64,000 bases of DNA. It comes from Candidatus Rokuibacteriota bacterium. GTDB lineage: Bacteria; Methylomirabilota; Methylomirabilia; Rokubacteriales; CSP1-6. Under the pieces are notes generated by a model, which was not told where the DNA came from, did not search any database, and saw only the letters and a list, made by a program, of their open reading frames with translations. Positions 21,400 through 24,885 of this stretch are shown one piece after another. The position numbers were made by a program, and so were the translations under genes. The stretch covers positions 1,043 to 65,042 of the forward strand of contig QHRW01000019.1 of assembly GCA_003220265.1 (NCBI GenBank). The letters run 5' to 3'. The stretch's first letter is position 1; each line of letters opens with the position of its first letter.

Positions 21400-21744
21400 A
21401 TGACGACAGCAACGAACGGCCGGCTCCGTCGCCTGATCGAGACCGAGCTGGCGGGCGTCACTGCGCGCCTGCCGAGGGGCGCCGAGACGCCGGAAACCCC
21501 GTCGAGCGGCGCGGACTTCTTCGACGTCGCCCAGGGCGTCGAGCACCAGGAGCTGGCGACGCTGAGCGCCTCACGCCTGTTCGAGCGGGCCCGGCGCCTG
21601 CGCCTGGCGCTGGAGCGCGTGGACGATGGCGACTACGGCGTGTGCTCGGAATGCGGCAGACCGATCCCGCCGCGGCGGCTTCTTGCCGTTCCCGACGCGA
21701 CCGCGTGCGTGGAGTGTCAGGAGCGGCTGGAGGTCGGCGTCTGA
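21400..21744 (+). CDS. TraR/DksA family C4-type zinc-finger protein
   Basis: 114 aa from an internal ATG with an AGGAGGG RBS. CSECGRPIPPRRLLAVPDATACVECQ zinc finger. Confidence 0.85.
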   Translation: MTTATNGRLRRLIETELAGVTARLPRGAETPETPSSGADFFDVAQGVEHQELATLSASRLFERARRLRLALERVDDGDYGVCSECGRPIPPRRLLAVPDATACVECQERLEVGV

Positions 21745-22394
21745 CGTTCGGGGGCGGGGGCGGCCATCGTGGTCGCCAGCCGCTGCCGGAGAAACAGCCG
21801 GGCGCGGTGCACGCGAGACTTCACGGTCCCGAGCGTGACACCCAGCACCTCCGCCACCTCCGCGTTGGACAGGCCTTCCACGTCGTGCAGCGTCAGCACC
21901 GTGCGGTAATCGGCGGGCAGCTCCTCGATGGCGGCATTCAGCACGAGGCGCAGCTCGGTGCCCCGCGAGGGGTCGTCGAGATCGGAGGACCAATCGACGC
22001 TCGACGCGCCTGGACCCTCCTCGTGGAAGGCGGGCAGCACGTCCTCGAGCGCGATCTCTGCGCGCCGCGACGACCGCGCCCGCAGCTTTTGATACGCCGC
22101 GTTGGCGACGATGCGATAGAGCCAGGAGCCGAACGCGGACTCCCCGCGGAACGTGTCGATCTTCCGGATCACGCTCCAGAGCGCGTCCTGCACCACCTCC
22201 TCGGCATCCCGGCTGCTGCCCGTGATGCCGATGGCCAGGCGATACGCGCGGTCGCCGAAGGTGGCGACGAGGCGCTCCGCGGCGTCCGGCCCCCCGTGGC
22301 GGAGCGCGTCCAGCAGCGCTTCGTCGCGATCGACGCGACGCGCCGCGTCCACGTTCGCGGATGTCATCGGGGTCTCGATGGCCATCGCCCTCAT
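21717..22394 (-). CDS. ECF-type RNA polymerase sigma-70 factor
   Basis: 225 aa. Region 2 (AEEVVQDALWSVIRKIDTFRGESAFGSWLYRIVANAA) and region 4 (LPADYRTVLTLHDVEGLSNAEVAEVLGVTLGTVKSRVHRAR). ATGA overlap with the upstream mini-gene. Confidence 0.92.
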   Translation of the reverse strand: MRAMAIETPMTSANVDAARRVDRDEALLDALRHGGPDAAERLVATFGDRAYRLAIGITGSSRDAEEVVQDALWSVIRKIDTFRGESAFGSWLYRIVANAAYQKLRARSSRRAEIALEDVLPAFHEEGPGASSVDWSSDLDDPSRGTELRLVLNAAIEELPADYRTVLTLHDVEGLSNAEVAEVLGVTLGTVKSRVHRARLFLRQRLATTMAAPAPERQTPTSSRS

Positions 22395-22633
22395 GACGGC
22401 AGCCCGCAGCTCGTCGCCACGAACCCCACGAGGCGCCGGATGGAATCGTCCACGCCGTCGGCGAAGCGCCGGAGAGCCTCGTCCGAGATGCGGGTGAGCG
22501 CCGACAGCTCCGTGGCCGAGAGCGGCAGCCCGGCTTCGAGGCTCGCGCGTGCCGGGTCGGCGCAGAACCGCGCCCGGAACGACTCGTCCGTGACCAGCTT
22601 CCCGATTGCTCGCTCGACCGCGTGCTGACTCAT
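22391..22633 (-). CDS. 80-aa cytoplasmic mini-protein resembling Nif11/NHLP-type RiPP leader domains
   Basis: Internal ATG with a GGAGGGG RBS. MSQHAVERAIGKLVTDESFRARFCADPARASLEAGLPLSATELSALTRISDEALRRFADGVDDSIRRLVGFVATSCGLPS. Its stop overlaps the ECF sigma start. Confidence 0.7.
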   Translation of the reverse strand: MSQHAVERAIGKLVTDESFRARFCADPARASLEAGLPLSATELSALTRISDEALRRFADGVDDSIRRLVGFVATSCGLPS

Positions 22634-22661
22634 CACTGTCCCCTCCAGAAGTCGGCTGGAA

Positions 22662-22677
22662 TGCATCACCCTTGCCG
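22662..22677 (-). promoter_or_regulatory. sigma54-type promoter (-24/-12) for the mini-protein and ECF sigma operon
   Basis: The minus strand reads cGGCAAGggtgaTGCAt, with exact GG-N10-GC spacing. The GC lies 29 nt upstream of the ATG at 22633, with the GGAGGGG RBS in between. The motif is about 115 nt downstream of the sigma54-activator gene stop. Confidence 0.5.
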
Positions 22678-22791
22678 AAATCCGAGGACGCAGCGAAATC
22701 GCGCGCTTCGCGCCGTCACGACGGCGCACCGTCGCGGAAGGGCCGTGGAAAGCTGTATCGATTCAGCCAGCCTGTACGGAAATGAGCAGTC

Positions 22792-24885
22792 TCAGCCGGG
22801 GAGCCCGAAGCGCCGCAGGCGCGTGTAGAGCTGCATGCGCGTGATGCCCAGGGCCGCGGCGGTCCGGGACTTGTTGCCCTTGGCCCGCGCCAGCGCCGTC
22901 TCGATGGTGCGCCGCTCCAGCGCGCCCAGGGACTCGCCGTCCGCGCGCGCGGCCGGCGCCGGCTCGGCGTGCGGCTCGCGCTTCACCGTGAGGGCGAGCT
23001 GGGCGGCCGTGATCAATCCGCCATCCGAGACGATCAGCGCGCGCTCGATCGCGTTCTGCAGCTCGCGGATGTTGCCCGGCCACGGGTGGCTCAGCAGCGC
23101 GTCGCGGGCGTCGCGGCTGAGCCCGGGATCGCCCTTGCCCAGCTTCGCCCCGATCTCGCGCACGAAGTGCTCGCCGAGCAGGATGACGTCGTCGTCGCGC
23201 GCGCGCAGTGCCGGCAGGCGGATCGGGAAGACCGCCAGCCGGTAGTAGAGATCCTCGCGAAATCGGCCGTCGGCGACGGCCTGCTCCAGATCGCGGTTCG
23301 TCGCGGCGATCAGCCGCACGTCGGCCGTGAGCGTCACCGTGCCGCCCACGCGCTCGTACTGCCGCTCCTGCAGCACCCGCAGCAGCTTCGCCTGCAGACC
23401 CGGCATCAGCTCGCCGATCTCGTCGAGAAACAGCGTGCCGCCGGCCGCCAGCTCGAAGCGCCCCCGCGTGAGCTTGTCGGCGCCGGTGAAGGCGCCGCGC
23501 TCGTGACCGAACAGCTCCGACTCGATGAGCGTATCCGGCAGCGCGGCGCAGTTGACGGCGACGAACGGCCCCTCCGCGCGCGGGCTGGCGTGGTGAATGG
23601 CGCGCGCGACCACTTCCTTGCCGGTCCCGCTCTCGCCGGTGAGCAGCACGGTCGTCTCGGTCGGCGCCACCCGCTGAGCTTGCTCCAGCGTCTCCACGAA
23701 TGCCGGCGCCCGGCCGATGACGTTGGCGAAGTCGTACCGATCGCCGAGCGCCCCGCGGAGGGACTCGACCCGGGCCTCGAGCGCCCGCGCCCGTGCCTCC
23801 ACCACGGCCAGGAGCTGCTGCTTCTCGGCCAGCCGCTGATGCTGCACCGCGATGACGATCTGCGAGGCCACGGCTTGCGCCACCTCGACGTCGGCCTCCC
23901 CGTACCAGCGGCGACGGCGCTTGGCGAAGTAGACGTAGCCGTCGACCCGCCCCGCGAAGAGCAGCGGCGCGATGAGCAGCGATTTCCGCCCGCGCGCCAG
24001 GATGCGCCGATCACCCGCGTACGCCGGGTCGAGCTCGACGTCGGCGTCGTGAATGAGGACCGTCTCCCCGTCGGCGAGTCGCGCCGACGTCGAGTACTCG
24101 CCCGGCGCCGCCACGGCCGCATAGCGCGGCCCCTCCTGGGTGTCCAGCGCGCCGACCAGCTCGAGCTCGCCGCCGTGCTGGTTGACCACCCGCAGGGCCA
24201 TGGCGTCGAAGTCGAAGATCGCGTGCAGCGCCTCGCCCAGCCGCTCGAGGAGATCGCCGATCTTCAGGCTGCTGCCGAGGATCGGCGCCAGCGCGGAGAC
24301 GGCGCGCAGCCGCCGGGCGCGATATCGCTCCCGATGCAGGTGCACGACGTTCTCGACGAATGGCCCGATGACTCCGGCGATCTGCCGGCCGGCGACGACG
24401 TGCTCCTCGCCGTAGAGATCGGGCGTCGCGCTGGCCAGGGCAAACGCGCCGATGATACGGCCCCCGGCGTAGAGCGGCACGGCCACGCGCGCGCGAATCC
24501 GCGCCGCCAGCAGGCGCGTCCGCGCCGCCGGCTTGTCGGTCCAGCGCGGGTCGCTCTGCACGTCGCCGACGAGCAGCGGCGCCCCGCGAAGGACGGCGTC
24601 GAAATCCCAGTCGTCCGCCGTGTAGCGGCCGGCTGGATCGAAGTCCGTGGTGTAGCGCCCCTCGTGCAGCGGGGGTCCCTCCCCCGGATGCTCGGCGAAG
24701 ACGGTGTAGGTGCTCGCCGCCTCGTCCACGTACGCGATCAGCATCCGGTCGTGCGGGACCAGTCGCTGGGCGCGCGACGAGAGCTCGGCCAGAAAGTGCC
24801 GGGGATCGAAGGTCTCCCGCAGTGACTGGGCGAACGCGGCCACGCACGCCAGCAGATCGGCGAGCACGTGTTCCTTGGACGGCAT
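22792..24885 (-). CDS. sigma54-dependent transcriptional activator (GAF-GAF-AAA+-HTH)
   Basis: About 697 aa. Walker A GESGTGKE, sigma54-contact loop ERGAFTGA, C-terminal Fis-type [25 protein letters not shown], and a long N-terminal GAF-like region. Start uncertain (24885 versus 24966). Confidence 0.9.

Follow-up and report, generated by a model that had tools for sequence, protein, structure and literature searches.

In the PspF-PspA and FhlA-HycA systems, a sigma-54 operon begins with the gene of a protein that binds and restrains the cognate activator. HycA antagonises FhlA. PspA restrains PspF, and hycA is the first gene of an FhlA-dependent operon (PMC4987338). In a second type of arrangement, a sigma-54 activator turns on the gene of an extracytoplasmic function (ECF) sigma factor, as HrpR/HrpS do with hrpL in Pseudomonas syringae, Erwinia and Pantoea, and QseF with RpoN at the P2 promoter of rpoE in E. 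coli (PMC8103513). A third point of comparison is Os1348 from Pseudomonas sp. Os17, a cytoplasmic homodimer of 85 amino acids (aa) (PMC7726476). Here we analyze a stretch of 64,000 nucleotides (nt) of the Candidatus Rokuibacteriota contig QHRW01000019.1 (hereafter the window, whose positions serve as coordinates throughout), where a sigma-54 activator gene is followed by a sigma-54 type promoter, a gene for a small Os1348-family protein and an ECF sigma factor gene. We consider it very probable that this cassette has the architecture set out below and forms a sigma-54 to ECF cascade, and likely, from comparison of gene neighbourhoods, that the small protein belongs to the activator module and is not specific to the ECF factor.

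All four elements lie on the minus strand, in the order activator, -24/-12 promoter, 80-aa open reading frame (ORF) and ECF sigma gene. They had been picked out in an earlier interpretation made from the letters alone (the sequence-only reading), and each was found where it had been placed. With the conserved sites between activator and promoter, the cassette reads as follows:

22792-24885, minus strand: sigma-54 enhancer-binding protein, 697 aa, with GAF-GAF, AAA+ and Fis-type helix-turn-helix (HTH) domains (Pfam and NCBIfam)
22773-22788, minus strand: putative upstream activator site 1, a TGC-N10-ACA dyad, TGCTCATTTCCGTACA (alignment A2)
22752-22767, minus strand: putative upstream activator site 2, a 16-bp palindrome, GCTGAATCGATACAGC (inverted repeat I1)
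22691-22700, minus strand: conserved element GATTTCGCTG between the dyads and the promoter (alignment A2)
22662-22677, minus strand: sigma-54 type -24/-12 promoter, CGGCAAG-GGTG-ATGCA (CGGCAAGGGTGATGCA; cross-locus conservation)
22391-22633, minus strand: small ORF, 80 aa, first gene of the sigma-54 transcription unit (hidden Markov model (HMM) matches, AlphaFold2 model, dN/dS)
21717-22394, minus strand: ECF sigma factor, 225 aa (Sigma70_r2, Sigma70_r4_2, TIGR02937)

The activator carries the Pfam domains GAF, GAF, Sigma54_activat (PF00158, 243 bits), AAA_lid_14 and HTH_8, and has both the GESGTGKE motif and the GAFTGA motif of the AAA+ sigma-54 interaction domain, in agreement with the GAF-GAF-AAA+-HTH protein that had been claimed. 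Its top NCBIfam models are NifA, NorR and FhlA, each falling under the equivalog cut-off; FhlA has the same GAF-GAF-AAA+-HTH architecture. The activator gene and the small ORF are separated by a 158-nt intergenic region, where neither a sigma-70-like promoter nor a terminator was found. The promoter, predicted about 115 nt downstream of the activator, indeed begins 115 nt past the activator stop codon and ends 29 nt short of the small-ORF ATG. The strong ribosome-binding site attributed to the small ORF is GGAGGGG (22640-22646), 6 nt 5′ of this ATG. The ECF protein consists of regions 2 and 4 only (Pfam and NCBIfam; TIGR02937 at 103 bits), and its start codon overlaps the stop codon of the small ORF as ATGA; both its identity and the overlap had been correctly called.

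The most natural reading of this architecture, already that of the sequence-only reading, is a sigma-54 activator driving an ECF gene. Since the ECF sigma factor is the cargo of this particular cassette, the locus in the window would be a sigma-54 to ECF cascade. The added remark that no characterised example of the arrangement was known was incorrect: HrpS acting on hrpL and QseF/RpoN acting on rpoE P2 have been described (PMC8103513), and a sigma-54 to ECF cascade is by itself of an already known kind. No canonical or membrane anti-sigma gene was found directly after the ECF gene by Pfam or in the ORF listing. The earlier observation on this point stands, with the qualification that an 82-aa membrane protein is encoded a little further on, beyond a convergent DksA/TraR-type gene. 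The ECF factor, with no anti-sigma gene adjacent, is probably governed by its synthesis; HrpL, likewise, has no cognate anti-sigma and is controlled by synthesis (PMC8103513). The two cascades differ in several respects. HrpR/S lack sensor domains and are controlled by HrpV/HrpG, whereas the activator here has a GAF-GAF sensor; hrpL has no co-transcribed small ORF in front of it, belongs to a different ECF group and a different phylum, and the Hrp cascade leads to type III secretion. In the paper that re-classifies the ECF factors, the main text makes no mention of sigma-54, DksA or NHLP.

To place the cassette among its relatives, we assembled gene neighbourhoods from 12 look-ups of individual contexts and from a scan each of genomes and metagenomes, classing the flanks by tblastn and Pfam. 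The resulting set contains 50 distinct small-protein sequences (loci are numbered with the prefix L), of which 44 have enough flank to be assessable. Named genome matches are metagenome-assembled genomes (MAGs) of Methylomirabilota, Rokuibacteriota and NC10, the distant ones including Polarisedimenticolia (Acidobacteriota), and a contig from a soil metagenome (L016) shares 98-100% identity with the window. In 40 of the 44 assessable distinct loci, the gene immediately 5′ of the small gene is an orthologue of the activator gene (52-99% identity). The four exceptions are L043, L057, L062 and L066/L067. The activator gene is partial in L057, while in L043 (1-2540) its place in front of the small gene is taken by a transposase/integrase gene of insertion sequence type, with loss of the sigma-54 motif; the other two are taken up below. 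Downstream of the small gene, several kinds of cargo were found:

ECF sigma factor gene directly: 22 distinct loci
DedA gene, then ECF sigma factor gene: 1 distinct locus
tripartite efflux genes (OEP-MFP-MFS, MFP-RND or MFP-ABC; OEP, outer-membrane efflux protein; MFP, membrane fusion protein; MFS, major facilitator superfamily; RND, resistance-nodulation-division; ABC, ATP-binding cassette): 8 distinct loci
MlaC gene: 7 distinct loci
gene for a 494-aa protein without known family: 2 distinct loci
nothing or unknown small ORFs: 4 distinct loci
flank too short: 6 distinct loci

An ECF gene is therefore found behind the small gene in about 23 of the 44 assessable loci, and in none of three distant contexts (42-50% identity), in which activator and small gene are followed by (OEP-)MFP-RND genes. 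The distant set includes an Acidobacteriota (Polarisedimenticolia) MAG (L070/L071). The cargo also differs among small proteins that are all about 70% identical to the query: ECF in L007 and L009, MFP-MFS in L031 and none in L012. A single MAG contains two cassettes (L011 and L014) with different cargo, each having its own activator and its own small protein; such paralogous cassettes fit what cognate regulatory pairs typically look like. In this pattern of conservation, the activator, its putative sites, the sigma-54 promoter and the small protein make up the constant unit. The ECF factor is one of several cargoes, and the one typical of the query's Methylomirabilota clade.

The sequence-only reading had proposed that the ECF factor may have the small protein as its soluble partner or anti-sigma, and the same neighbourhoods bear on this idea. 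The small protein would then resemble NepR, a small, all-helical, soluble protein encoded, as here, just 5′ of the EcfG-type ECF gene in the same operon, and translational coupling through the ATGA overlap would keep the two partners stoichiometric. The small gene is immediately 5′ of the ECF gene in 22 distinct loci, the pair survives loss of the activator in L066/L067, and no canonical anti-sigma gene is adjacent. However, the small gene is not followed by an ECF gene in about half of the distinct relatives, where the protein is conserved to the same degree. The stop-start overlap is also seen where the next gene encodes an outer-membrane factor (L001, L070 and L074). Pfam detects no anti-sigma domain in the small protein, no sigma/anti-sigma fusion occurs among the longer proteins in the best 150 of the 1020 homologue clusters described below, and ECF factors under transcription-only control are well known (PMC8103513). 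The parallel with NepR is limited too: NepR is always found together with EcfG and PhyR, but the small protein, which has no homology to it, is as often encoded without an ECF gene. With the activator upstream in 40 of 44 loci and an ECF gene following in only about half, the proposal did not survive the neighbourhood check, and we regard an anti-sigma role as highly improbable. Three apparent domain fusions, P0176 (HlyD), P0168 (VTT/DedA) and P0215 (AlgH), were rejected as such. All three are truncated on both sides and have the appearance of chimeras with the downstream gene, produced by assembly or a frameshift; they therefore only restate the adjacency.

Some further observations concern individual cargoes and loci. 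NCBIfam assigns the cargo pumps to the multidrug RND, EmrB-type MFS and RbbA-type ABC classes. A heavy-metal (Czc/Cnr-like) function, which the OEP-MFP-RND gene order and a His-rich neighbouring protein had brought to mind, was discarded in view of these multidrug types. In one clade, the cargo is a protein of about 500 aa with no Pfam or NCBIfam match (L044, 631-2112; L043, 2790-3893). The activator orthologue of L012 (5880-7845) gives two overlapping alignments, one to residues 8-443 of the query and the other to residues 474-695, which suggests that it is frameshifted or a pseudogene.

The -24/-12 promoter has GG and GC at the canonical sigma-54 spacing. Judged by the window alone it is not significant: the window contains 31 matches at up to 3 mismatches, compared to 61 expected, and a pattern tailored to the site gives 1 match compared to 0.48 expected. 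We count the promoter as significant because it is conserved across loci, that is, on the comparative data only. In a 9-locus alignment of the intergenic region (A2), with a mean column identity of 47%, GGC of the -24 element and TGC of the -12 element show no variation. Among the 50 distinct segments upstream of the small gene, 86% contain GG-N10-GC with 8 or more of the 12 consensus positions matched, compared to 11-12% of shuffled or random control segments. At 9 or more matches, the proportions are 74% and 2-3%, respectively. The motif is thus enriched at least 7-fold over controls. The three distant contexts (L070, about 9935-9951, and the equivalent positions in L072 and L074) have TGGCAYG-N4-TTGG or TTGA at the same place, i.e., a perfect -24 element (TGGCAYG) combined with TTGG or TTGA instead of TTGC at -12, which may be a lineage-specific variant of the sigma-54 promoter.

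Two dyads lie between the activator stop codon and the promoter. Dyad 1 begins 4 nt past the stop codon, and its flanking TG and CA are invariant in A2; a TGT-N10-ACA sequence occupies the equivalent position in L001, L011, L015, L066, L069, L070 and L072. The palindrome at site 2 is kept as TGT-N10-ACA in L003 and L004. In both Methylomirabilota and Acidobacteriota, TGT-N10-ACA dyads are conserved directly behind the activator stop codon, and the core of dyad 1, CATTTCCGTAC, resembles an FhlA site, CATTTCGTACGAAATG (PMC4987338). We infer that the dyads are binding sites for the activator and that the promoter would depend on sigma-54 in vivo. The element between dyads and promoter is conserved in A2 as TGATTTC/TAATTTC, in loci with ECF cargo and in loci with efflux cargo; this GATTTC element may be a bend site of the integration host factor type or a third activator half-site.

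The small protein matches NF038399, 'Os1348 family NHLP clan protein', at 72.6 bits (cut-off 40) and PF14407, Frankia_peptide, at 54.8 bits (cut-off 48). The resemblance to NHLP/Nif11 leaders, which the sequence-only reading had put forward pending an HMM check, is confirmed by these two scores. A sequence search retrieved 49 close homologues, and searches with profiles 496 and then 690; among the homologues listed, all carry PF14407 except P0189, which has no precomputed domain. An exhaustive profile search yielded 1020 clusters at 50% identity, nearly all of them stand-alone proteins, 60-150 aa long, in which the domain is N-terminal. Over the domain, the median dN/dS is 0.28 (22 orthologues). 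Purifying selection is strong across 68 aa, including polar residues of surface type (E7, R8, K12, T15, D16 and R20), while the tail of 10-35 residues that follows these strongly conserved first 68 varies freely. Since two curated HMM cut-offs are passed and dN/dS is 0.28, we take the small ORF to be a real gene. It is single-copy in the window.

An AlphaFold2 model of the small protein (28 sequences; predicted local distance difference test score, 91.1) has five helices reaching residue 76 of 80. Foldseek matches this model to the chains of the Os1348 crystal structure 6LK7 with a probability of 1.00 and TM-scores of 0.71-0.85, and a profile search with the small protein finds 6lk7_A at E = 1e-5. 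The two proteins belong to the same HMM family (NF038399, PF14407), share the helical fold, a similar size and a short flexible C-terminus, and both are encoded beside a tripartite RND efflux operon, although they are only about 24-28% identical. Os1348 is under Gac/Rsm control, not sigma-54 (PMC7726476); the EmhABC RND pump lies beside its gene, which is followed by GNAT, HEXXH-peptidase and SagB-like genes that are absent at the window cassette. In ECOD, the family shares a group with LigA, NHase-alpha, Nif11 and further helical domains that bind partners (PMC12353581). The small protein has neither a transmembrane segment nor a signal peptide. Foldseek matches to the SonA and OphA leader domains were weak and non-significant (E about 4-10, probability 0.1-0.25); as structural echoes of the model they suggest a partner-binding fold.

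Membership in the NHLP clan raises the question of whether the small protein is the precursor of a ribosomally synthesised and post-translationally modified peptide (RiPP), a bacteriocin-like product or a signal peptide, with an NHLP-type leader and the variable tail as its core; genes elsewhere, perhaps those of the ECF regulon, would then supply the modifying enzymes, with the pumps as exporters of the product. The conserved N-terminal domain followed by a variable tail is a precursor-like pattern, the query clade has a Thr/Ser/Cys-Gly tail, and the GNAT, HEXXH-peptidase and SagB-like genes adjoining Os1348 would suit such a role. Several loci have HlyD-ABC or OEP-MFP cargo, and a B12-binding radical-SAM gene, the sole maturase-like gene in the contexts, directly follows OEP-MFP-RND in L070 (16182-17588) and L071 (12404-13810). 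Against this, the true precursor models score below cut-off (TIGR03793, 12.2 vs. 50.9; TIGR04509, 29.6 vs. 34), and the small protein lacks a Gly-Gly type cleavage motif. In the window, Pfam scans of about 43 ORFs (some 39 in addition to the four module proteins) revealed no YcaO/cyclodehydratase, radical SAM, LanM or ATP-grasp maturase and no C39-peptidase ABC exporter with HlyD, which agrees with the maturase-free window described earlier; neither a maturase nor such an exporter recurs across about 20 Pfam-annotated contexts. In most clades, the tail is acidic and Pro/Gly-rich, not Cys/Ser/Thr-rich, and has no conserved residue. Pumps of the multidrug RND, EmrB and RbbA types do not export peptides with folded 70-aa leaders, and a helical domain that extends to residue 76 of 80 in the model leaves almost no core. 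The small protein does have in common with the NHLP/Nif11 precursors (TIGR03793 and others) and the borosin SonA leaders a LigA-like three-helix core (ECOD grouping, PMC12353581), but it differs from them in its model scores, the lack of cleavage motif, maturase and dedicated exporter, and the near absence of a core. The view that it is not a locally matured natural-product precursor was thus borne out, and a precursor of any kind seems to us distinctly unlikely.

What, then, might the small protein do within the activator module? Its gene is the first behind the conserved promoter, and the activator gene is adjacent in 40 of 44 loci, a position in the operon like that of anti-activators of the PspA, HycA, NifL and HrpV type. 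The best-supported explanation would be that the small protein binds and modulates the activator, because the activator is the only protein regularly co-encoded with it and the fold is of a partner-binding kind. In the mechanism we propose, the GAF-GAF activator would sense a small molecule or a stress, bind the two dyads just 3′ of its own stop codon and switch on the -24/-12 promoter, the first product of which would be the Os1348-family helical protein. The genes behind the small protein would be interchangeable cargo, here an ECF sigma factor that would be translationally coupled to the small ORF and, like HrpL, controlled mainly by its synthesis. Through its protein-binding fold of the LigA/NHLP type, the small protein would bind to the activator and exert feedback. 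For this scheme as a whole, a sigma-54 cassette with interchangeable cargo and a small protein that is intrinsic to the activator module and exerts feedback on the activator, we see the balance as about even. The specific step in which the small protein acts on the activator is put forward tentatively, by analogy with PspA and HycA, to which the small protein has no sequence or fold relation; the interaction here is only proposed. More speculatively still, this branch of the Os1348 family could consist not of natural-product precursors but of a new class of small partners, anti-activators or co-sensors, for GAF-type sigma-54 activators, forming a portable three-part switch in front of efflux, lipid-transport or ECF genes in soil Methylomirabilota and Acidobacteriota.

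Several results weigh against a regulatory partner of the activator. The link between the two proteins is one of guilt by association and analogy. Pfam and NCBIfam find only NHLP-clan models in the small protein and no homology to PspA, HycA, NifL or HrpV, and a search of the 64-kb window for rpoN, by the RpoN box, found none. In L062, the small gene precedes a pump and has neither an adjacent activator nor a sigma-54 motif. L066 (9700-10036) and L067 have lost most of the activator gene by deletion but keep the small gene and the ECF gene; these loci retain the last 150 nt or so of the activator gene, the dyads and the sigma-54 promoter and amount to a natural deletion variant. Outside the query's clade, no cargo is commoner than efflux pumps, and the characterised homologue Os1348 adjoins an RND pump that affects its level; the small protein could therefore be functionally tied to efflux instead.

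These findings lead to another explanation, in which the small protein serves a stress response as an effector or accessory, not as a regulator: a cytoplasmic dimer that binds or buffers a toxic compound handled by the co-expressed pumps, hands it to them, or otherwise protects the cell, its gene being first in the operon because the protein is needed in the greatest amount. L062 and L066/L067 fit such a role at least as well as a purely regulatory one, L062 having the small gene and a pump with neither activator nor promoter. Efflux systems of three energy classes, together with MlaC and DedA, dominate the cargo, and the small gene is the sole output of the cassette in L012/L030. The level of Os1348 responds to loss of the neighbouring RND pump, and deletion of Os1348 alters antibiotic activity (PMC7726476). 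On the other hand, a soluble protein with no signal peptide cannot reach the periplasmic parts that RND, MFS and ABC systems have in common, the fold has no known ligand-binding pocket or cofactor motif, and an effector gives no reason for the small gene to precede an ECF gene in half of the loci. We think an effector role unlikely.

A literature search combining NHLP, sigma-54 and efflux returned nothing relevant, and the parts available of the literature on PF14407/Os1348 contain no link to sigma-54. The family is known and has a solved structure, and the cascade is of a known kind; we found no description in the searchable literature of a conserved coupling of the Os1348-type family to GAF-type sigma-54 activators with swappable cargo. 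Members of this family, about 1000 clusters, are currently annotated 'RiPP' or 'putative modified peptide', and for the approximately 50 distinct loci and few distant contexts examined here, the 'RiPP' label is probably misleading for genome mining. Should the small protein prove to be a partner of the activator, it would represent a new way to control bacterial enhancer-binding proteins and a case where the RiPP-leader fold has been reused for regulation. In soil phyla that are abundant but uncultured, the cassette would place multidrug efflux and an ECF regulon under the control of sigma-54, as a compact, portable and probably ligand-responsive switch.

Two accessory genes are found near the 3′ end of the cassette:

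21346-21744, plus strand: DksA/TraR-type C4 zinc-finger protein (PF01258 at 50.8 bits)
21008-21256, minus strand: single-pass membrane protein, 82 aa (alignment A5 and HMM; no Pfam match)

The DksA/TraR gene is convergent with the ECF gene, whose 3′ end it overlaps by 28 nt, and DFFDVAQ in its product is a tip motif resembling DxxDxA. Beyond this gene, at 21345-21325, lies the sole terminator-like hairpin of the minus strand, so that read-through from the cassette would run antisense over it. A DksA/TraR gene follows the ECF gene in L011 and L017-L027, and lies upstream of the activator in L003 and L004. We infer from this recurrence that it is a member of the module. The 82-aa membrane protein, in which His30, His36, Cys46 and Cys70 are invariant (A5), is encoded in 23 loci by HMM, at three positions relative to the cassette: after the ECF/DksA genes, as in the query's clade; before the activator; and between activator and small gene, in loci with MlaC cargo. 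Before the activator, both accessory genes are present in L003 and L004, and only the membrane-protein gene is visible in L005. Relatives of this protein are found in L003 (6927-7154), L014 (3166-3468) and L047 (413-661). The protein might serve the system as a membrane sensor or as a partner.

Elsewhere in the window, the region 1448-5193 encodes five receiver-domain proteins, from four response-regulator genes (one with two receivers) and a hybrid histidine kinase gene; this cluster is unrelated to the cassette. An RND-MFP-OEP efflux operon of unusual gene order (25480-31171, plus strand) is divergent from the activator gene, and between the two is a gene for a 101-aa secreted protein (25006-25311, minus strand). 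The synteny of the RND operon and the secreted-protein gene is common to L016, L017, L020 and L025. On the other side of the cassette, a small secreted protein without family match (20645-20986, plus strand) has a His/Gly/Asp-rich stretch, GGHADGGGHGEGMSHGGHDFDRHRSEDHHFDGRDHDHF, and a Tyr/Pro-rich C-terminus; its gene is conserved beside that of the 82-aa membrane protein in L011, L020-L023 and L025.

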